A stretch of DNA of 64,000 bases, taken from assembly GCF_003790525.1 (NCBI RefSeq), contig NZ_CP033635.1, one strand, 5' to 3'. Under the pieces are notes generated by a model that was not told the DNA's origin, made no database searches, and saw only the letters and a list, made by a program, of their open reading frames with translations. This stretch comes from Escherichia coli. GTDB taxonomy: Bacteria > Pseudomonadota > Gammaproteobacteria > Enterobacterales > Enterobacteriaceae. The position numbers and the translations under genes were made by a program. Of the stretch, positions 3,558 through 45,078 are shown in pieces. How positions within the stretch are numbered: position 1 is the stretch's first letter; the number at the start of each line of letters is the position of its first letter.

Positions 3558-6083
<2,526 letters not shown>

Positions 6084-33097: not shown

Positions 33098-33450
33098 CCT
33101 GCACGCCTGGAAATTTCAAATGAAAGGCATATCTCTTTTACTTATTTCTGCCGCCATATATTTCCCCAAGTATAAAACATTTAACATTTCATCATAAAAG
33201 TTAAAATGTTTTATTCTCTGATAAAACGTGAACTGCATAACAAAATACAGAGAAACAAAGCCAAAAACGAATTAACGCAAACTTAAAACGAAAAATTATA
33301 ATTGTCGCCATCACTCTCCTTAACTAACCTCATTCCCACAACGTTGTTTAAATCATTAATAAATATGCATTAAGGAAAGTCAGTATGTATTTGCTTAGAA
33401 AATAAAAGCTTTTTTTCTGAGACAGGCATTCTTGTTCTGGAGAGAATATA

Positions 33451-34824
33451 ATGAGTTCCGTCATTGAAACTACTCAATCAACTTCATCCGATTCCTTACC
33501 TTTAATACAGCGGATTAGCTACGGCTCACTGGATGTTGCCGGTAATCTGCTCTACTGTTTTGGCTCTACCTACATTCTTTATTTCTACACCGACGTAGCA
33601 GGGATTAGTCTGGCGGTTGCAGGCATAATCCTACTGCTGGCGCGCATTGTAGACGGTATTGATGCGCCAGTGTGGGGAATCATTATCGATAAAACCCATT
33701 CGCGTTATGGAAAATGCCGTCCATGGTTTTTATGGTTACCATTACCTTTTGCTGTATTTAGTGCGCTTTCTTTCTGGTCACCCGATATCAGCATGACAGG
33801 GAAAGCTGTTTATGCAGCAATATCGTACATGTTAGCCAGCATTCTGTTCACTGGGTTGAATACACCATTAAGCGCTATATTACCGCTGATGACGCTGTCA
33901 CCAAAGGAACGCCTGGTATTAAACTCATATCGCATGACTGGTGGGCAAATTGGCGTACTATTAATGAATGCGACAGCATTGCCATTGGTCGCTTTCCTTG
34001 GTAATGGTAACGATAAAGCAGGCTTTATATATACTGCCATAGTCTTTGCCGTAATATCCTGTGCCTTAACGTTGTTTGCCTTTAAAAATATTCGCGAACT
34101 GGATACCGATAAAATACAGCAAGAACCACGACTGCCGATGAAAAAGAGTTTTTCGGCAATGAAAGGGAACTGGCCGTGGCTCCTGATGGTAGTGGCGAAC
34201 CTTATCTTCTGGATTGCCCTACAGCAGCGCAACACTACTATTGTTTACTATTTAACCTACAATCTGGATCGCAAAGATCTGGTCCCGCTGGTTAACAGCC
34301 TCGCCACCATTCAGATCCTGTTTATCATTGCCATTCCGTTCTTCAGTCGCTATCTCACCAAAACCTGGATTTGGATTACCGGGCTGCTGGTTGCGATGTT
34401 AGGCGGGGGCCTCATGTGGCTGGCTGCCGACAGCATCCCTTTGATGATCGCCGCCTGGGTACTCGCCAATATCGGCAGCGGTATCGCCTGTTCTATGCCT
34501 TTCGCGATGCTCGGTTTCGCCGTTGACTTTGGTCGCTGGAAAACCGGCATTAAAGCTACCGGCATTCTGATCGCCTTCGGCAGCACCTTCTGCATCAAGA
34601 TGGGCAGTGGTATCGGTACAGCTTTCGCTGCCTTTATTATGGACAGCTTTGGTTATATCCCCAACCAACAACAGACGGCTGCGGGGTTGGAAGGTATCAG
34701 CCTGGCATTTATCTGGGTCCCTGCGCTGCTCTTTGCTCTCGCGGCTGTACCACTGCTCTTCTTTCGCCAGTATGAAGCGATGGAAGGTCGTATCCAACAC
34801 GATCTGCAAGCCCACAATCGTTGA
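33451..34824 (+). CDS. Glycoside-pentoside-hexuronide (GPH) family cation symporter (MelB/YicJ/YihO-like), accessory
   Basis: 457 aa, 12-TM-like; N-terminal GPH signature YGSLDVAGN...YFYTDVAGISLAVAGIILLLARIVDGIDAPVWGIIIDKTHSRYGKCRPW; RBS GGAGAG upstream. Confidence 0.85.
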   Translation: MSSVIETTQSTSSDSLPLIQRISYGSLDVAGNLLYCFGSTYILYFYTDVAGISLAVAGIILLLARIVDGIDAPVWGIIIDKTHSRYGKCRPWFLWLPLPFAVFSALSFWSPDISMTGKAVYAAISYMLASILFTGLNTPLSAILPLMTLSPKERLVLNSYRMTGGQIGVLLMNATALPLVAFLGNGNDKAGFIYTAIVFAVISCALTLFAFKNIRELDTDKIQQEPRLPMKKSFSAMKGNWPWLLMVVANLIFWIALQQRNTTIVYYLTYNLDRKDLVPLVNSLATIQILFIIAIPFFSRYLTKTWIWITGLLVAMLGGGLMWLAADSIPLMIAAWVLANIGSGIACSMPFAMLGFAVDFGRWKTGIKATGILIAFGSTFCIKMGSGIGTAFAAFIMDSFGYIPNQQQTAAGLEGISLAFIWVPALLFALAAVPLLFFRQYEAMEGRIQHDLQAHNR

Positions 34825-34863
34825 ATTTAATCAACATGCCACTTGCTCCTGGGAGGAACAATT

Positions 34864-36903
34864 ATGTCGTTTATTAAGCAAGATCCCCACCGTCTGGTCT
34901 GGCAACAAGACGATCGTTATCTCTGGATTGAAGCCTGGGGCGAAAACAGCTTACGCGTGCGAAGCGGCCGCCATTTACCGGTAATGCGCAATGAAAACTG
35001 GGCGTTAACTCAGGATCCTGGCGATGCTGTCGCTCATATCACCTGGGATGAAAAACAGGCAACGCTGAGAAATGGTAAAATCACTGCCATCGTAAATCTT
35101 CAGGGCCAGCTCTCTTTCTGGCGTAATGATGATAAATGCCTGCTGCAAGAGTTCTGGCGTCAACGTGGCGAAATTGGTGAAGATGAGTCAGCACACGGCC
35201 AATATGTGAGCGCTCTTAATCTACAGGCCCGTGAATTCAAGCCTATTCCTGGCGGGAAATTTACGATTAAGGCACGATTTGAAGCCAACGATGGCGAGAA
35301 ACTCTTTGGCATGGGTCAGTATCAGCAACCAAACCTGGATTTAAAAGGTTGCATGCTGGAGCTGGCACAACGTAACTCGCAGGCTTCTGTTCCCTTCCTG
35401 CTATCAAATCAGGGTTATGGTTTTCTGTGGAATAACCCAGCAATTGGCCGCGTCACCTTCGCGCAAAACGGTACGGAATGGGTAGCAGAAGTCAGTGAAC
35501 AACTGGACTACTGGATCACTGCGGGCGATACTCCGGCTGAGATCAGTGAAGCCTATGCACGAGTAACCGGTACGCCACCGATGATGCCTGATTACGCAAT
35601 GGGGTTCTGGCAATGCAAGCTTCGCTATCGTAATCAACAAGAATTGTTAGAAGTCGCACGCGGCTACAAGCAACGCAATCTTCCGATCTCGGTGATTGTC
35701 ATCGATTTCTTCCATTGGCCGAATCAGGGTGACTGGATGTTCGATCTGCGTGACTGGCCCGATCCCGATGCGATGATCGCCGAATTAAAAGAAATGGGTA
35801 TCGAACTGATGGTTTCATTCTGGCCTACCGTAGATAACCGTACCGAGAGTTATCGGGAGATGAAAGAAAACGGCTGGCTAGTCCACACCGAGCGTGGTTT
35901 GCCTATCAATATGGATTTCCTTGGCAACACCACGTTCTTTGATGCGACACATCCTGGCGCACGGGAATATGTCTGGAACAAAGCCAAACGCAATTATTAC
36001 GATAAAGGCGTGAAACTGTTCTGGCTGGATGAAGCCGAGCCAGAGTTCGGTGTTTACGATTATGACAACTATCGTTACTACGCAGGGCCAGTGCTGGAAG
36101 TCGGTAATATCTATCCGCGTATGTACGCCAAAACGTTCTTCGATGGCATGCAGGCAGCCGGAGAAAAGCAGGTGATCAATTTGCTACGCTGCGCCTGGGC
36201 CGGTAGTCAGAAATATGGTGCCCTGGTGTGGTCAGGCGATATCCACTCCTCCTTCCGTTCTCTGCGCAATCAGTTTGCTGCGGGGCTGAACATGGGAATT
36301 GCCGGGATCCCGTGGTGGACGACGGATATTGGCGGTTTCCACGGTGGCAACATACATGATCCAAAATTTCATGAACTGCTTATTCGCTGGTTCCAGTGGG
36401 GGGTATTCAGCCCAGTAATGCGTTTACATGGCAACCGCGACCCGCAAGTTTTGCCTGAACAACCCTATCGTGATGGCATCGCACAATGTCCGACTGGCGC
36501 GCCGAATGAAGTCTGGAGCTATGGTGAAGAAACCGGTGAAATTCTCACTTCCTGCCTGCAGTTGCGTGAGAAGCTGAAACCTTATATCAGTAAAATTATG
36601 GCTGAGACGCACGAGAAGAACAGCCCGGTAATGCGCACGATGTTCTTTGAGTTTCCAGACCAGGCAGAAAGCTGGAATATTTATGATCAGTACTGCTTTG
36701 GCCCGGACCTTCTCGTTGCCCCTGTAATGCACGAAGGTACACGTTCACGTGATGTCTGGTTGCCTGCCGGAGAGACATGGATCGATTTTTATACCCATGA
36801 ACACTACGCGGGTGGGCAAAAGCTTCATCATTGCGCGCCGCTGCACCAGATACCGGTATTCATTCGTGAGAAAGGGAAATATCGCCAGTTATTACCCGTT
36901 TAA
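34864..36903 (+). CDS. Glycoside hydrolase family 31 enzyme (alpha-xylosidase/alpha-glucosidase/sulfoquinovosidase-like), accessory
   Basis: Track ORF trimmed to ATG at 34864 (RBS GGGAGG); 679 aa; GH31-like motifs around FWLDEAEPE (putative nucleophile Asp) and WSGDIHS (putative acid/base Asp); paired with GPH transporter as in yicJI / yihOPQ. Confidence 0.8.
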   Translation: MSFIKQDPHRLVWQQDDRYLWIEAWGENSLRVRSGRHLPVMRNENWALTQDPGDAVAHITWDEKQATLRNGKITAIVNLQGQLSFWRNDDKCLLQEFWRQRGEIGEDESAHGQYVSALNLQAREFKPIPGGKFTIKARFEANDGEKLFGMGQYQQPNLDLKGCMLELAQRNSQASVPFLLSNQGYGFLWNNPAIGRVTFAQNGTEWVAEVSEQLDYWITAGDTPAEISEAYARVTGTPPMMPDYAMGFWQCKLRYRNQQELLEVARGYKQRNLPISVIVIDFFHWPNQGDWMFDLRDWPDPDAMIAELKEMGIELMVSFWPTVDNRTESYREMKENGWLVHTERGLPINMDFLGNTTFFDATHPGAREYVWNKAKRNYYDKGVKLFWLDEAEPEFGVYDYDNYRYYAGPVLEVGNIYPRMYAKTFFDGMQAAGEKQVINLLRCAWAGSQKYGALVWSGDIHSSFRSLRNQFAAGLNMGIAGIPWWTTDIGGFHGGNIHDPKFHELLIRWFQWGVFSPVMRLHGNRDPQVLPEQPYRDGIAQCPTGAPNEVWSYGEETGEILTSCLQLREKLKPYISKIMAETHEKNSPVMRTMFFEFPDQAESWNIYDQYCFGPDLLVAPVMHEGTRSRDVWLPAGETWIDFYTHEHYAGGQKLHHCAPLHQIPVFIREKGKYRQLLPV

Positions 36904-37925: not shown

Positions 37926-39092
37926 TCAAACTGATGGACGCAAACGAACGCGTAACCAGCTGTATCCAATTACCGCCGAAGAGATAGAACCGACCAGGAT
38001 ACCGAGTTTCGCCCAGTTAATCAGTTCTGGATCTACGCTACCAAAGGCAAGGCTGGCAATAAAGATAGACATAGTAAAACCGATACCGCATAGGATCCCC
38101 ACCGCCATAATTTGCTGATAAGTCGTTCCCTCAGGCAGATGCGCCAGTTTCAAACGCAGCGCCAACCAGCAGAACAGACTAATACCCAGTGGCTTGCCAA
38201 TCAGCAAACCGGCGATGATCCCTAATGGCAGAATGGAGGTCAGGCCATCCAGCGTCACGCCTTGCAGAGATACCCCCGCATTGGCAAACGCAAACAACGG
38301 CAAAATCAGATATGCCACCCACGGATGCAAAACATGCTCCAGACGTTTAGCCGGAGAGCGCCCATGCTTCTCTTTTAACGGAATAAAGAAGCCGACAATG
38401 ACGCCAGCCAGCGTTGCATGGACACCTGATTTCAACACCGCTGTCCACAGTACCACGCCAACCAGAATATAAACGCCCGTGCGACGAACACCACAGATAT
38501 TCAGTACCGCGAGTACGGCAATCGCTACTGCCGCAACGCCGAGAGACGCCATCGATAAGTCATTAGTGTAGAACAATGCGATGATAATGATGGCCCCAAG
38601 ATCGTCGATAATAGCCAGAGCCATCAAAAAGATCTTCAGCGCTAACGGAACACGACTTCCCAACAGCGCCAGCACACCAAGTGCAAAGGCAATGTCAGTA
38701 GCCGCCGGGATCGCCCACCCTTCGCGGGTAATCGGATCGGCATAGTTAAAGGCCAGATAGAGCAATGCCGGCACAATCATCCCACCAATAGCGGCGATAA
38801 CTGGAAATGCGGCCTGGCGTAAGCTGGCTAGCGATCCTTGCATCAGTTCACGTTTAACTTCCAGACCGACTAACAGGAAAAATACCGCCATCAGCGCGTC
38901 ATTTATCCATAACAGCATGTTTTTGTTGATTTCGAGTGAACCAACCCGGAGCTGAACCGGCGTCTCCAGAAAGTCGTGATACCATCCACTGGTTGCGCCG
39001 CTATTGGCCATAATCATCGCCAGGATAGCGGCAATGATAAGAATAATGCCTCCCGAGGCATCACTGCTAAAGAATCGATGCAGATGTTTCAC
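37926..39092 (-). CDS. nhaA: Na+/H+ antiporter NhaA
   Basis: 388 aa [48 protein letters not shown]... Confidence 0.97.
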
Positions 39093-39343
39093 TTTTTATT
39101 TCTCTTTCAGGTGAATAGATCGTTTTTACTATTTTACCCCGCACGAATCATCGTTAAAATCAGATTATAGTGTAGGAATAATTCGTTTTTTACGAACCAT
39201 TGAAGGATTTGTGCCATCAGCGATGAGATGATTTTTTGACGGCTGTAAGCGCTCACGAGTGACCCTAAGCCCTGATAATCATAGCTTAAGGTGAGGATTT
39301 CTGAGGGATTAATTAGGAAAAGTAATAATAAAATCGCACTGTG

Positions 39344-40588
39344 CTATAGCTGTTTATTCCAGAGATGCTTGAAAATATCTAATGTGGAGACAACATTGGC
39401 AGGCGACATTCGGTTTAATGAGGATAGAAAGGGATGAGACTCCAGGAAGTTGATAAAACGAGTCGCGCTTGCTAACGTCGAATACCGCATTTCATTTGCT
39501 TTCTTGTTTCCTGTAAGGTTACAAACAGCCATTGAATAATCACGGGCGGAAAATGTACGCCAAACATTATTTCTCACGCCACCACTCAAAAACAACCGCG
39601 GCGGCGTATCATAATGAGTCGTTTTCTCGCCGCGTTCTTTCACAAATGAAATATGGCACCGGCCTTGATGAATATGCTGTAAATTAGCCATCAGACAACC
39701 ACCTAATATAAAGCACTCGTGATCAAGGTAGTGTTGAATATTTATAGAATATGCTTCAGTCAGTGCTCTAACCAGTTCAAAATGGCGATACGCCGGAAGA
39801 ACCGGTTTCACCAACATCCCCGGATCGTTTTGATGTAATATCGCCCGACCATAATCAATATCAAATAAGGTATCACGCCGCATAGTAAGTAACTCCTTGC
39901 GTTGTACGTGATGCGCCAGTGTACCTGGAGACAAACGCTCTTCATAACTTGATGCATATTGATAATGCGACTCTACCGCTGATGGAGAATAATTTGTTGA
40001 AATAGCGACGACTCTACCGCTTTGTTCTTCTGCGGTAACAAGGCTATAAAGATAGTTATTACTACCGTTAAACTTTACGCGAAAAGCGCGGGTAGATAGA
40101 GAAATATCAGAAGCAGAAGAGTATTGGTAACTTTCTTTATAGTTTACTTCCCGGGCTAGTTTCATCAACTCACGGTTAAGCCCTGTGCTATTAAGAAGTA
40201 ATAATTTACGGATATCTGCAAGTGAAGCGCCTTGATCAATCATCAATGCTAAATGTGTTCTTCGCGGCGTTGTATTTACATGATCCAGAGTGATAAAAGT
40301 TCTGGAACAATGATGACAATACATTCTCCTCTGCCCCTGAGCTGAATAGCCATACTTTTTCAGAGATGTGCTTCCGCAAGCTGAACATTGTGGAACCAAC
40401 CCTCTCCATGAATGATTAACACGATTACGATAAATATTAAGAGATCGTTCAGATATCACAGGAAACAAGTAACCGCATTCCCGACATAAAATATTTTTTC
40501 CTTGTGCAATATAATCCTGGCTATTCAACAACCCCAGGTTTTTGCATCCTGGTGTTTTGCAACAATCAACATTTACGTTGGTAAACAT
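39344..40588 (-). CDS. Hypothetical protein with two N-terminal CxxC...CxxC zinc-ribbon motifs (IS1 InsA / transposase-type zinc finger-like), accessory
   Basis: Track ORF 39344-40624; preferred start at internal ATG 40588 preceded by AGGGAG RBS; motifs CKNLG...CRECG and CSACGSTSLKKYGYSAQGQRRMYCHHCSRTF resemble InsA CPSCSATDG...GHQRYLCSHCRKTW; very AT-rich. Confidence 0.6.
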   Translation of the reverse strand: MFTNVNVDCCKTPGCKNLGLLNSQDYIAQGKNILCRECGYLFPVISERSLNIYRNRVNHSWRGLVPQCSACGSTSLKKYGYSAQGQRRMYCHHCSRTFITLDHVNTTPRRTHLALMIDQGASLADIRKLLLLNSTGLNRELMKLAREVNYKESYQYSSASDISLSTRAFRVKFNGSNNYLYSLVTAEEQSGRVVAISTNYSPSAVESHYQYASSYEERLSPGTLAHHVQRKELLTMRRDTLFDIDYGRAILHQNDPGMLVKPVLPAYRHFELVRALTEAYSINIQHYLDHECFILGGCLMANLQHIHQGRCHISFVKERGEKTTHYDTPPRLFLSGGVRNNVWRTFSARDYSMAVCNLTGNKKANEMRYSTLASATRFINFLESHPFLSSLNRMSPANVVSTLDIFKHLWNKQL

Positions 40589-40717
40589 ATTCACTCCCTG
40601 CGAATACCCGGATATTATCGTCATATGTCAAAGAAAAGAACCTGACTCAATGTGTAACATTGAATCAGGCGGGCATGGCCCTGAAAGGCATACATTACAT
40701 TTATTATGGTTATCAGA

Positions 40718-42211
40718 TTAGCCCCAGGTTACCGCTTCCGGTTTATCACCTCTGGCTTTCATTAATGAATCATTATCAATATCGGCTTTATACTTTAAGA
40801 ACTTACCATACATTTGTTTTTCAATGTCTGGATTTTTACCTATCTGATTAATGGTCTCAAAACGATCGGTTTTGAGGTTGTATAGGTACTTTGGCTTATT
40901 GTTACGATCGATGATCATTTTCCAGTCACCATCACGTATCGCCCATTCGTCGGTTGGATCATCCTGGAATGGCATGTCAATTCCGAAGATTAATGGCTTT
41001 TCACGTTTTAGCGCTTTGTTCTCAAGGACAGGAACCAACGATTCGCCATCAAAAGTCCGGTCCGTCGGTAATTTGAAGTTCATCATTTTCGCCAGCGTAG
41101 GCATCCAGTCCAGACCATAAACAGGCGTATCTGAAACCATTCCCTTTGGAAGATGCTTTCCGTATTTAATAATCGCCGGAACACGGATGCCACCTTCCCA
41201 GAGATTATCCTTGCGACCACGTAATCCATCAGTTTCCCCTGCCAAATTCAGTTCATAAACTTTGCGCGCTTCACGCGTTACTGGTCCGTTATCACTGGTA
41301 AAAATAACGATGGTGTTATCTTCTTCACCCATCGCTTTGATTTTATCCAGTACTTTTCCAACCTGAGCATCCAGATAACTGATGTTGGCATAATATTCTC
41401 CTGTACCACGCCAGGGTTTATCCGCCCAGTCGCCATAAAATAAATCAGGATGCTGCTTCTGATAGTCGCTCATATATTGTGAGTACATGTCGAGGTATTT
41501 TTTGGGCGAAGCCAGGGGACTGTGCACTTCGGTAAAAGCGACATAAAGGAAGAAAGGCTTACTGTCCTTTTTGTTATCCAACCAGTTGACGACTTCCGAA
41601 CTGACATACTCACCACTCATTTTATCGGAACGTGGTGTGGGTTGCCCGTTACGCAACCAGCCCGTTGGATAGACCATGCCAAAACGGGGACGCTCCTTCG
41701 CATTATCCAGAGTAGCGTCGGTAACAAAACCCGCCGTATTAACCAGTGAGTAATCAAAGCCCATATCTTTTGCCTGCGGCTGATCGGTGCGATCGCCGCC
41801 TGCATTCAGATGCAGCTTACCCATCATGGCCGTGTCGTACCCTTGCGCTTTGAGTAGATTAGCAATCGTGAGTTCATTACGCCCTAATGCCACATCTTTT
41901 CCCGTTGGGATCCATGAGCGTATGCCGGTACGAAATGGCATCCGCCCTGTTAATAGTCCCGCCCGTGAAGGAGAACTTAAGGGGGCAGGTGCATAATAGT
42001 CGGTAAATTTGACGCCTTCCTGGGCAAGCCTGTCTATATTGGGCGTTTTAACGATCTGATGTCCATATGTTGCCAAATCACCATAGCCTAAATCATCCGC
42101 CATAATGATGACTAAATTGGGTTGTTTAGTTTCGGCGGCTACGGCTGGATTAAAAGCATTCCCTGTGCAAACTGCAAGGCCGATCAAACTGGCCATTAAT
42201 GTTTTCTGCAT
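40718..42211 (-). CDS. Secreted Ser-type sulfatase (arylsulfatase A family), accessory
   Basis: Track ORF trimmed to MQKTLMASLIGLAVCTGNAFNPAVAA (signal peptide); IIMADDLGYGDL and sulfatase signature LSSPSRAGLLTGR with Ser in place of the formylglycine-precursor Cys. Confidence 0.85.
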   Translation of the reverse strand: MQKTLMASLIGLAVCTGNAFNPAVAAETKQPNLVIIMADDLGYGDLATYGHQIVKTPNIDRLAQEGVKFTDYYAPAPLSSPSRAGLLTGRMPFRTGIRSWIPTGKDVALGRNELTIANLLKAQGYDTAMMGKLHLNAGGDRTDQPQAKDMGFDYSLVNTAGFVTDATLDNAKERPRFGMVYPTGWLRNGQPTPRSDKMSGEYVSSEVVNWLDNKKDSKPFFLYVAFTEVHSPLASPKKYLDMYSQYMSDYQKQHPDLFYGDWADKPWRGTGEYYANISYLDAQVGKVLDKIKAMGEEDNTIVIFTSDNGPVTREARKVYELNLAGETDGLRGRKDNLWEGGIRVPAIIKYGKHLPKGMVSDTPVYGLDWMPTLAKMMNFKLPTDRTFDGESLVPVLENKALKREKPLIFGIDMPFQDDPTDEWAIRDGDWKMIIDRNNKPKYLYNLKTDRFETINQIGKNPDIEKQMYGKFLKYKADIDNDSLMKARGDKPEAVTWG

Positions 42212-42230
42212 AATTATTCCCTGATGAAAA

Positions 42231-42992
42231 TTAGAAATCATAACCAAGCATATAAATCATTTGATCGCCAAAACCATCGTAGCCCAACTTATTATCGAAA
42301 TAACGCCACGTCACACTGGCTTTCCAGCGAGGATAGAACTTCCAGGCCACTGTTAAACCGCCATTTAGCCCATTCCGACCAAATTGTTGTTCCGCATAGG
42401 CATCATTTCTGTCCAGTTCTATTTCATTCCAGTTAGATAAAACAAATTTTTCGTCAAATAACGTAAAAGGTAATACTGCTGTCCAGCCAACAACATAACC
42501 ATTCCAGCCATTTGTTTGTCCATATTTGGCTGAGACGTAGTCTCCAGATTGATTATGTAATCCAATATACGGTTTAAAAAACCCCCATGAACCATTCCAG
42601 CCGAGGTAGCCCAAACCATAAAACATATCAAGATCGTCACCCCATGAGTTATCCCATTGACCATAGATCTTGCCAAAGAAAGTCATATTGGAGTCAAAGA
42701 GTCTGACATGTGTCATAGCAGAAACGGTATGATTACGCCCCGCTACGGCATGGTTAAGCACATTGCTTTCATAAAATGAGTAAAACTCGGCTTCTTTAAA
42801 ATTCACACCAAAGTCTGCAGTCACTTTCCATACTTCACCACGATGAGTGTTAACGAAGCCACTATTCCAGTCAGCATAACCTGCATTTATTGAGCCAAAG
42901 GAACCTTTATATTCTAATGAAGAATATGCAGGAAGGTGATAGAAAATCGTTGTCAGGGCACACGCAATAAGAAGCCGTCTTTTGGCAGACAT
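42231..42992 (-). CDS. Tsx-family outer membrane channel protein, accessory
   Basis: 253 aa with signal peptide, aromatic-rich beta-barrel-like sequence ending ...MIYMLGYDF (compare Tsx C-terminus ...VVGYNF); RBS GGAGAG; 19 nt upstream of sulfatase gene. Confidence 0.7.
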   Translation of the reverse strand: MSAKRRLLIACALTTIFYHLPAYSSLEYKGSFGSINAGYADWNSGFVNTHRGEVWKVTADFGVNFKEAEFYSFYESNVLNHAVAGRNHTVSAMTHVRLFDSNMTFFGKIYGQWDNSWGDDLDMFYGLGYLGWNGSWGFFKPYIGLHNQSGDYVSAKYGQTNGWNGYVVGWTAVLPFTLFDEKFVLSNWNEIELDRNDAYAEQQFGRNGLNGGLTVAWKFYPRWKASVTWRYFDNKLGYDGFGDQMIYMLGYDF

Positions 42993-43500
42993 ATAATATG
43001 CTCTCCATTCATTTTTTTTATGGTTCCATAGAAATCAATACATCAGATAATTCATTTTGATTAAGAACGACTCAGAAAGTATATTTAAAGGTGAATGGCA
43101 AAGCGTGATGGAGATCGCAGATTACTTTTACCCCCGGGTGTGGAGGTATCGTGTTTCAAAAAGTGTGTCGATTTTAAATATCACTCATTGATTTATAAAC
43201 ATTTTTCCTCACAAAAAGAAAATTCAATTCTGTACAAGAATATTTTGTATCTTCTATTACTTTCTCCAGTAATAACTCACCATTCAGGCATAACTTAAAC
43301 CTCTTGTTCATAATCTCAACTTTTGTAAATGAAAACGCACATAAGAGTTAAAATAAACAATGTACTAAAGATTGATTACGCAAAAATGCGAGGCGTCTTC
43401 AGGATTAGAATCGATAAAACAGAATGGGTTAAAGAGAGCGATATAATAGCGGCGGGTGCTTGAGGCTGTCTGTCTCAGGCATTAGCTGAACGGCAGATAG

Positions 43501-43555
43501 AGAAAAGCCCCGAGTGATATTTTACCATCAACCCGAGGCCCCCTATATGCAGAAC
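43501..43555 (-). ncRNA. sokC: sokC antisense RNA (position inferred from K-12 hokC/sokC geometry)
   Basis: Placed by conserved offset relative to the mokC start; antisense to the mokC 5' region; boundaries approximate. Confidence 0.35.
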
Positions 43556-43756
43556 ACATGTAGAGTGCCTCTTACTGACCGTAAGGTCAAGGAGAAGAGA
43601 GCAATGAAGCAGCATAAGGCGATGATTGTCGCCCTGATCGTCATCTGTATCACCGCCGTAGTGGCGGCGCTGGTAACGAGAAAAGACCTCTGTGAGGTTC
43701 ACATCCGAACTGGCCAGACGGAGGTTGCTGTTTTCACGGCTTACGAATCCGAGTAA
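43547..43756 (+). CDS. mokC: MokC, overlapping regulatory reading frame of the hokC toxin locus
   Basis: 69-codon frame MQNTCRVPLTDRKVKEKRA-MKQHKA... co-terminal with hokC. Confidence 0.65.
   Translation: MQNTCRVPLTDRKVKEKRAMKQHKAMIVALIVICITAVVAALVTRKDLCEVHIRTGQTEVAVFTAYESE
43604..43756 (+). CDS. hokC: Type I toxin HokC (Gef)
   Basis: 50 aa MKQHKAMIVALIVICITAVVAALVTRKDLCEVHIRTGQTEVAVFTAYESE recognised as Hok/Gef family toxin. Confidence 0.9.
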   Translation: MKQHKAMIVALIVICITAVVAALVTRKDLCEVHIRTGQTEVAVFTAYESE

Positions 43757-44990: not shown

Positions 44991-45078
44991 CTTTTTTAAA
45001 TTGCCCCTAGATGAATGCACGGGCGGAGAGGAAATTCCCCTTCGCCCGTGTCAGTATAATTACCCGTTTATAGGGCGA

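Follow-up and report, generated by a model that had tools for sequence, protein, structure and literature searches.

A transposase-derived zinc-ribbon protein as a possible local regulator of a porin-sulfatase operon in Escherichia coli

A 64-kb stretch of Escherichia coli DNA (64,000 nucleotides, hereafter the window), whose source chromosome is that of strain SMS-3-5, carries on its minus strand the genes of an OmpK/Tsx porin, a periplasmic sulfatase and a 414-amino-acid (aa) protein, followed by nhaA and nhaR. The 414-aa protein (RefSeq WP_012311863) bears the name [quoted passage not shown] Its gene is not an insertion sequence (IS); it derives from an IS1/IS256-like transposase of the DDE (Asp-Asp-Glu) type and is immobile, under selection and single-copy. 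On balance, and with slightly more confidence than doubt, we favor the view that it has been exapted as a local regulator controlling transcription of the porin-sulfatase operon. Such a role is suggested because the zinc finger and helix-turn-helix (HTH) are kept, because the family adjoins scavenging operons, often divergently, and because a block is conserved in the promoter. The N-terminal half corresponds to the DNA-binding module of an IS1-type transposase (InsA-like zinc ribbon and HTH) behind an added zinc ribbon, and the C-terminal half keeps the predicted RNase H-like DDE core fold. According to the proposed mechanism, this non-mobile protein, maintained by selection as a host gene, would bind the promoter of the OmpK/Tsx-porin/sulfatase operon and modulate its CRP-dependent transcription from a candidate operator that has an IHF-like site on one side and a CRP-like site of class II geometry on the other, while the former catalytic domain may serve for oligomerization or ligand sensing. 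DNA binding at this block, the direction of the regulation and any ligand are points that we infer.

Domain architecture, copy number and selection

The N-terminal half contains two zinc ribbons whose eight cysteines are all invariant or at least 90% conserved in an alignment of 45 relatives (17-80% identity). An earlier note on this DNA, made from the sequence alone, had described two CxxC...CxxC modules in this region. This description applies to the second ribbon (C68-x2-C71-x19-C91-x2-C94), in which C68, C91, C94, G80 and R88 are invariant and C71 is conserved in at least 90% of the relatives, whereas the first ribbon is actually of the Cx4C...CxxC type (C10-x4-C15...C35-x2-C38). The zinc-ribbon fold itself agrees with structure prediction, ribbon 1 forming beta-hairpins in the AlphaFold2 (AF2) model with a predicted local distance difference test score (pLDDT) of about 90. 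The likeness of the second module to IS1 InsA, which had also been pointed out, reflects true homology and includes the HTH. Indeed, residues 65-145 of the family were aligned by hhalign with residues 5-88 of InsA, zinc finger and HTH being both covered, with a probability of 96.6% (E 6e-10). The NCBIfam model IS1_IS1595_Zn (NF050000) was matched with 31.7 bits for a cut-off of 28. The model transpos_IS1 (NF033558) was not reached (28 bits vs. a cut-off of 100), only its positions 1-86 being matched, and Pfam Zn_ribbon_InsA was found in 8 of the 45 relatives, or 22 when weak matches are counted. Matches to C2H2 zinc fingers were discarded as mere Cys/His patterns that do not reflect homology.

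The C-terminal part, about 300 residues, had been considered unrecognizable. This holds for sequence libraries, as it gave no match in Pfam, NCBIfam, PHROG, PADLOC or PDB sequences, and neither Pfam DDE_Tnp_IS1 (PF03400), which is carried by all genuine IS1 transposases of the comparison set, nor any other DDE family was detected in the protein or its 45 relatives. However, it does not hold for the fold, which is recognizable as RNase H-like. With 25 close orthologues, the AF2 prediction reached a pLDDT of 59 and the C-domain could not be interpreted; after addition of 20 distant relatives (45 in total), the pLDDT was 92.1 and the predicted template modeling score 0.92. Full-length relatives at 17-33% identity were supplied by an exhaustive phmmer search, to which a profile search added almost none. 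In the resulting model, residues 160-307 adopt the topology beta1-beta2-beta3-alpha-beta4-alpha-beta5-alpha, followed by an extra beta-sheet and a helical bundle (Table 1). Structure comparison of this model gave matches that include Mos1, Tn5, Mu, TnsB, Hermes, piggyBac and Argonaute PIWI domains, and the Foldseek result agrees with these RNase H-like matches. The check for a DDE/RNase H fold proposed in the earlier note was thus positive, the C-domain being predicted by AF2 and Foldseek to be an RNase H-like core of the DDE type.

This core is most likely unable to cut or join DNA, because conserved acidic residues appear to be missing on beta1 and, as far as the position can be placed, after beta4. 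The D1, D2 and E positions were assigned by secondary-structure order and not by structural alignment. Among the 45 relatives, no beta1 column reaches 50% Asp or Glu; D161 is present in 13 of them, the column of D243 holds 20 Asp and 10 Glu, and P262, located after beta4, is a proline in 44. The sole acidic column of the C-domain conserved at 90% or more is E291 (40 Glu and 4 Asp of 44), located where the helix following beta5 begins, the usual seat of the Glu in the DDE triad. R238 and H269 are invariant (45/45), H286, H290, E291, N199, Y211 and W343 are 82-98% conserved, and F270 and N411 are conserved as well.

Of 5426 complete E. coli genomes, 1171 contain the coding sequence (CDS), in one copy each, always on the chromosome and never on a plasmid. 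Hence, the copy-number check suggested in the earlier note revealed no multicopy IS. The gene is full length in 1164 of the carriers and falls into two allele classes, at least 95% identical in 230 genomes and about 81% identical in 941 (CFT073, ST131, Nissle). Plasmid matches that were inspected (E. coli, Citrobacter, Salmonella) were chromosome-like records or fragments, as were the phage-collection matches where inspected. True IS1 ends were read for comparison, with inverted repeats of about 23 bp and a target-site duplication as the criterion. Neither terminal or flanking inverted repeats nor repeats at the gene or island ends were found above chance (best alignment score 21; shuffles 17.5 ± 2.9), which bears out the previous remark that no IS termini are visible. 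Besides, when compared with K-12 insA and insB, the gene is a single uninterrupted open reading frame (ORF), free of the two-frame insA/insB arrangement with its programmed -1 frameshift. Purifying selection is illustrated by a ratio of nonsynonymous to synonymous substitution rates (dN/dS) of 0.095 between the SMS-3-5 and CFT073 alleles (0.109 for the N-domain, 0.087 for the C-domain), for a dS of about 1.0.

Gene neighborhood and promoter conservation

The orthologues, which share 36-97% identity, come from Escherichia, Salmonella, Klebsiella, Citrobacter, Kluyvera, Buttiauxella and Scandinavium, with a 33% relative in Atlantibacter, and they are intact in at least seven genera. Within the cassettes listed in Table 1, the gene begins 11-27 nt after the maturase gene in Salmonella, Klebsiella, Citrobacter, Scandinavium and Atlantibacter, and it is the sole regulator-like gene travelling with the cassette. 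Because the cassettes of Scandinavium and Atlantibacter sit elsewhere, the gene is associated with the cassette and not with nhaA. The position beside the nhaA promoter, stressed in the earlier note, is therefore correct for the window, where the GTG of nhaA lies 252 bp downstream of the stop codon, but this adjacency is not conserved in these two genera.

Six distant relatives (22-28% identity, 376-478 aa) were examined; all of them adjoin nucleoside or nucleotide scavenging genes, five divergently, and consensus CRP sites are also present in their intergenic regions. When the E. coli metL-metF copy with the metL start was used as a DNA query, at least 80% of it was covered in 1701 of the 5426 genomes. 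In the AlphaFold database (AFDB), the family extends across Enterobacterales and Vibrionales, some genomes having two divergent paralogues, and remoter “insertion element” proteins of 570-630 aa from Geobacter, Thiocapsa and Paraburkholderia may be its mobile ancestors. In Salmonella and Citrobacter, the sulfatase cassette comes with a gene for a metallophosphatase/5'-nucleotidase of 520-523 aa, and a similar gene directly precedes the Vibrio aquaticus member. Since such a gene occurs at both types of locus, the sulfatase-type and nucleotide-type loci are hinted to share a substrate theme, namely nucleoside-like compounds taken up via Tsx-type channels.

Other observations were made at the metL-metF locus. 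The family member found there is 376 aa long in E. coli, and E. coli, Salmonella and Citrobacter share a conserved 132-bp intergenic region (E. coli 118UI locus 4470-4601). Within this region lie a perfect CRP site, which reads TGTGAGAGTACTCACA in E. coli and has half-sites invariant in all three genera, and a CAACGA-N14-TCGTTG palindrome directly upstream of the paralogue start.

Nine promoters from five genera were then compared, i.e., those of the porin of E. coli (two alleles), Klebsiella, Scandinavium and Atlantibacter, and those of the porin and the sulfatase of Salmonella and Citrobacter. A single CRP-like site (NGNGA-N6-TCAC) is present in every one of them, and a TAnnnT hexamer follows 20-21 nt downstream in eight of the nine, which corresponds to class II geometry. 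Further upstream, the block ACAYnTnTnTGAnAC is centered about 52 bp from the CRP-like site, at about -92 from the likely start site, and fits no consensus known to us. With the upstream 80 nt aligned without gaps on the CRP-like site, 11 columns are identical in at least 7 of the 9 promoters, compared with 1.7 ± 1.2 under a circular-shift null (maximum 8 in 2000 trials). A position weight matrix of the two conserved blocks found no further match within the window. On inspection, the ACAYnTnTnTGAnAC block fits neither a second CRP site nor a -35 element. The IHF-like block was also considered as an operator resembling an IS1 end (AACTTA), but this hexamer is present in only three of the nine promoters and was attributed to chance.

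Taken more broadly, the protein may be the founding member of a gammaproteobacterial family of transcription factors derived from a catalytically dead DDE transposase, with two accessory paralogues in E. coli. With CRP (and IHF), this family would control scavenging operons of the outer membrane and periplasm (sulfatase and Tsx-type porin, deo, nupC, 5'-nucleotidases), its old pocket (H269/H286/H290/E291/R238) sensing a nucleoside-like or sulfated ligand. We put forward this wider proposal tentatively, as plausible yet somewhat short of probable.

Table 1. Features of the porin-sulfatase island in the window, and loci of orthologues and distant relatives in other genomes.
Feature	Location	Strand	Remarks
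CDS of the 414-aa zinc-ribbon/HTH/RNase H-like protein	39344..40588	-	stop codon 39344-39346; intact ORF, RefSeq WP_012311863
Zinc ribbon 1, residues 10-38 (C10, C15, C35, C38)	40475..40561	-	each Cys at least 90% conserved in 45 relatives
Zinc ribbon 2, InsA-type, residues 68-94 (C68, C71, C91, C94)	40307..40387	-	conservation, NCBIfam, hhalign
Three-helix HTH, residues 108-153, homologous to the InsA HTH	40130..40267	-	
Predicted RNase H-like (DDE transposase/integrase-type) domain without conserved Asp-Asp pair, residues 160-414	39347..40111	-	includes extra beta-sheet 311-357 and C-terminal helical bundle
Terminator-like hairpin, 14-bp stem then U-rich run	40640..40670	-	between sulfatase stop and start of the 414-aa gene
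Periplasmic sulfatase, 497 aa, active-site motif SSPSR	40718..42211	-	ORF and RefSeq annotation
OmpK/Tsx-family outer-membrane channel, 253 aa	42231..42992	-	annotation; Pfam Channel_Tsx in orthologous loci
CRP-like site TGCGATCTCCATCACG	43104..43119	-	20 nt upstream of TATACT hexamer (43078-43083); class II geometry
Conserved block, core ACAYnTnTnTGAnAC, candidate operator	43152..43175	-	fixed spacing from CRP-like site, gapless alignment
IHF-consensus-like block AATCAATGAGTGA (consensus WATCAANNNNTTR)	43179..43196	-	0-2 mismatches, same aligned position, 9/9 promoters
Accessory island (porin, sulfatase, 414-aa protein gene), 4,048 bp	39333..43380	.	blastn junctions vs. K-12, Sakai, CFT073
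Salmonella, Citrobacter: porin / sulfatase / radical-SAM-SPASM maturase / 414-aa orthologue, then arylsulfotransferase	upstream of nhaA		
Klebsiella: porin / sulfatase / maturase / orthologue	between dnaJ and nhaA		
Scandinavium (41% identity): porin / sulfatase / maturase / orthologue	near cdd		
Atlantibacter (33% identity): porin / sulfatase / maturase / orthologue	near acylphosphatase gene		
Distant relative	divergent from deoCABD-add operon		
Distant relative	divergent from deoB-deoD and nucleoside symporter		
Distant relative	divergent from nupC and purine nucleoside phosphorylase		
Distant relative, Salmonella serovar Give	divergent from porin, AphA-type phosphatase, phosphodiesterase		
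Distant relative, Vibrio aquaticus	downstream of UshA-like 5'-nucleotidase		
Distant relative, Salmonella/Citrobacter/E. coli	between metL and metF, divergent from UshA-like 5'-nucleotidase		

Alternative explanations and known systems

Several points weigh against a regulatory role. The conservation of the promoters is partly due to common descent, which the shuffle null leaves in; since this null keeps shared ancestry, the promoter alignment is supporting and not decisive. The candidate operator block could belong to another factor. On the protein side, the D1, D2 and E positions were deduced from the order of secondary-structure elements in a predicted model, and the conserved R238, H269, H286, H290 and E291, instead of acting as a sensor, could together make up a non-canonical active site. 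Because a terminator parts the E. coli copy from the sulfatase gene and the maturase gene is gone, this copy could also be a relic with a partner pathway in transition. Lastly, a limited full-text literature search (STM0035-37, c0020/c0021, acid-inducible sulfatase, bacterial transposase exaptation) returned no study of the gene or its family, and neither experimental DNA binding or regulation nor transcriptome or chromatin immunoprecipitation data for the gene. A 2013 study by Das et al. reportedly concerns a different sulfatase.

Among the alternatives, of which the first two carry the most weight, the RNase H-like domain could still be an enzyme with a re-tooled site (H269, H286, H290, E291, R238, N199), i.e., a nuclease or processing factor acting on nucleic acid or a nucleotide-like substrate. 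The strict conservation of H269 and R238 and the 82-98% conservation of H286, H290, E291, N199, Y211 and W343 speak for such an enzyme, and the family-wide link with nucleotide and nucleoside genes fits a nucleotide ligand or substrate. However, RNase H-like nucleases require at least two carboxylates for two-metal catalysis and beta1 is devoid of a conserved acidic residue, the sequence searches match no nuclease family, and the divergent orientation toward operons together with the kept zinc finger and HTH is typical of local regulators, so that we regard this explanation as unlikely. The short distance to the maturase gene (11-27 nt in five genera) could instead point to a pathway-specific accessory factor of the sulfatase, involved in maturation, export or assembly with the radical-SAM maturase rather than in DNA binding. 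This is improbable given an N-terminus that is a transposase DNA-binding module, the persistence of the gene in E. coli despite loss of the maturase, and paralogues that stand beside deo, nupC or nucleotidase genes with no sulfatase. A role as regulator or insulator of the downstream nhaA-nhaR genes would be compatible with a stop codon 252 bp upstream of nhaA, with no terminator-like site found between, and with the divergence of nhaAR between B2 and non-B2 strains (PMC4182557). Nevertheless, the cassette is away from nhaA in Scandinavium and Atlantibacter, an arylsulfotransferase gene intervenes in Salmonella and Citrobacter, and nhaA is regulated in most E. coli strains even though they lack this gene, which makes such a role very unlikely.

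Mobility was considered as well. The cassette occupies at least three chromosomal sites in different genera and the E. coli island stops 11 bp past the stop codon, as might be expected if an active transposase or recombinase moved the porin-sulfatase genes as cargo. Against this stand gene and island ends without terminal repeats (score 21 vs. shuffles at 17.5 ± 2.9), a single chromosomal copy, absent Asp columns and paralogues that occur without any cassette, and we give this possibility hardly any credence. The idea of a decaying, functionless IS remnant could draw on relatives that the NCBI Prokaryotic Genome Annotation Pipeline or UniProt sometimes name “IS1 family transposase” and on an AT-rich region, although the “extreme” AT-richness reported in the earlier note was overstated (41.0% GC for the CDS and 41.7% for the island, vs. 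51.0% for the whole window). It is refuted, and is the least credible of all, by full length in 1164 of 1171 carriers, a dN/dS of 0.095 at a dS of about 1 and intact orthologues in at least seven genera. Hence, of the options left open by the earlier note, the degenerate IS is rejected because the gene is single-copy, under purifying selection and syntenic and conserved across genera, and the domesticated transposase is well supported by the fold, the missing Asp pair, the single copy, the lack of repeats, the dN/dS and the synteny. A defense-system reading was discarded.

The closest comparison for a domesticated transposase of this kind is IS1 itself, whose InsA is a DNA-binding transcriptional repressor. 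The 414-aa protein shares with InsAB'/InsA a homologous CxxC...CxxC zinc ribbon and HTH, and the predicted DDE-type RNase H-like fold placed behind the DNA-binding module. It differs from InsAB' in its length (414 vs. 232 aa), its extra N-terminal zinc ribbon, its single ORF without programmed frameshift, its lack of terminal repeats and its single copy. Its C-domain also lacks a DDE_Tnp_IS1 sequence match and conserved Asp columns; the search for InsAB' homologues gave near-identical IS1 copies only, and hence no diverse IS1 profile for the comparison of this domain. Identity to the cores of the IS256/Mutator-family ISCth4 (PDB 6xg8) and of retroviral integrases is 7-12%, and their catalytic D, D and E are not conserved here.

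In eukaryotes, the domestication of transposases into regulators is well documented, and domesticated DDE transposases serve as transcription factors, e.g., FHY3/FAR1, which derive from Mutator-like elements. For FHY3/FAR1, the likeness lies in a kept DNA-binding domain, the loss of mobility and catalysis, purifying selection and a fixed gene location. The difference is that the present protein is bacterial, stems from an IS1/IS256-like ancestor and is proposed to act as a local regulator of the adjacent operon. In bacteria, to our knowledge, domestication of DDE transposases into regulators is barely documented. TldR proteins are TnpB-derived, nuclease-dead, RNA-guided bacterial repressors encoded beside their target genes. 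They provide a bacterial precedent for a transposon-encoded nuclease exapted as a regulator near its targets, although they belong to the RuvC/TnpB superfamily and are RNA-guided, whereas the present protein has a DDE ancestor and would recognize DNA by itself, no guide RNA being evident. Exaptation of TnpB has been discussed previously (PMC10691335). The passage from transposase to regulator is thus a known type of event, of which a DDE-fold, IS1-headed family beside bacterial catabolic operons would be a new variant.

CytR, a LacI-family protein through which E. coli controls tsx, deo, nupC, nupG and cdd in a CRP-dependent manner, resembles the proposed regulator in function only, through the kinds of target genes (Tsx-type channel, deo, nupC, nucleotidases) and a factor site upstream of a CRP site. 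The two proteins are not homologous, and the conserved promoter block is unlike the CytR octamer GTTGCATT.

If true, the regulatory role would make E. coli CFT073, Nissle and ST131 and Salmonella tractable bacterial systems for studying how a mobile-element protein turns into a host regulator. It would assign a function to genes that databases name “cytoplasmic protein,” “hypothetical protein” or, wrongly, “IS1 family transposase.” It would also identify the control point for a sulfatase/porin cassette that Salmonella and Klebsiella carry and that is enriched among extra-intestinal (B2) E. coli, sulfatases being linked to host-glycan foraging. Whatever the function, annotation as a transposase inflates IS counts and masks a conserved host gene.

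Accessory island and flanking regions

The ORF proposed in the earlier note (39344-40624) is indeed intact on the minus strand but 12 codons too long. The ATG at 40588 is the true start, because a GGGAG Shine-Dalgarno sequence precedes it and all homologues begin with MF in the alignments of both 25 and 45 sequences. Upstream, the 76-nt stretch 40625-40700 that holds the terminator-like hairpin has a minimum free energy of -26.5 kcal/mol (z -4.5), and the hairpin sits where the other genera have the radical-SAM maturase gene.

The island, drawn as “putative cerebroside sulfatase” genes beside nhaAR in a previous study (PMC4182557), is absent from K-12 and O157 Sakai and present in CFT073. Its boundary is 11 bp past the stop of the 414-aa gene, DNA shared with K-12 starting 12 bp past this stop, and the 122 bp that K-12 has at this position are unrelated to the island sequence. 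No terminator-like site was found between the stop and nhaA (39093-39343), so that read-through into nhaA would be possible in island-bearing strains.

Some observations concern the sulfatase. The formylglycine position is a Ser (SSPSR) in both E. coli alleles and a Cys (CSPSR) in all five other genera; likewise, the E. coli island has no maturase gene and the five other genera have an adjacent radical-SAM/SPASM maturase. The E. coli sulfatase is under strong purifying selection (dN/dS 0.029).

Over positions 37926-42992 of the window, dS between the SMS-3-5 and B2 (CFT073) alleles is about 1.0 for the 414-aa gene, 0.6 for the sulfatase and porin genes and 0.35 for nhaA. This divergence is very deep for one species. 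It extends into the island the unusual divergence of nhaAR between B2 and non-B2 strains (PMC4182557).

In Salmonella, the orthologue is shortened in host-restricted serovars according to AFDB50 (Typhi 327 aa, Paratyphi C 247 aa, Dublin 375 aa), which could reflect pseudogenization or fragmentary gene models.

Both flanks of nhaAR are a hotspot of accessory content. Beyond nhaR (about 33400-36903), the window carries genes for a family 31 glycoside hydrolase and for an MFS transporter; at this place, IS1A and rpsT are found in K-12, and fimbrial genes in Sakai. Rfam places the sok antitoxin RNA of the hokC/mokC locus at 43454-43606 (+), bordering the island, and the small RNA tpke11 at 44991-45068 (-), upstream of dnaJ.

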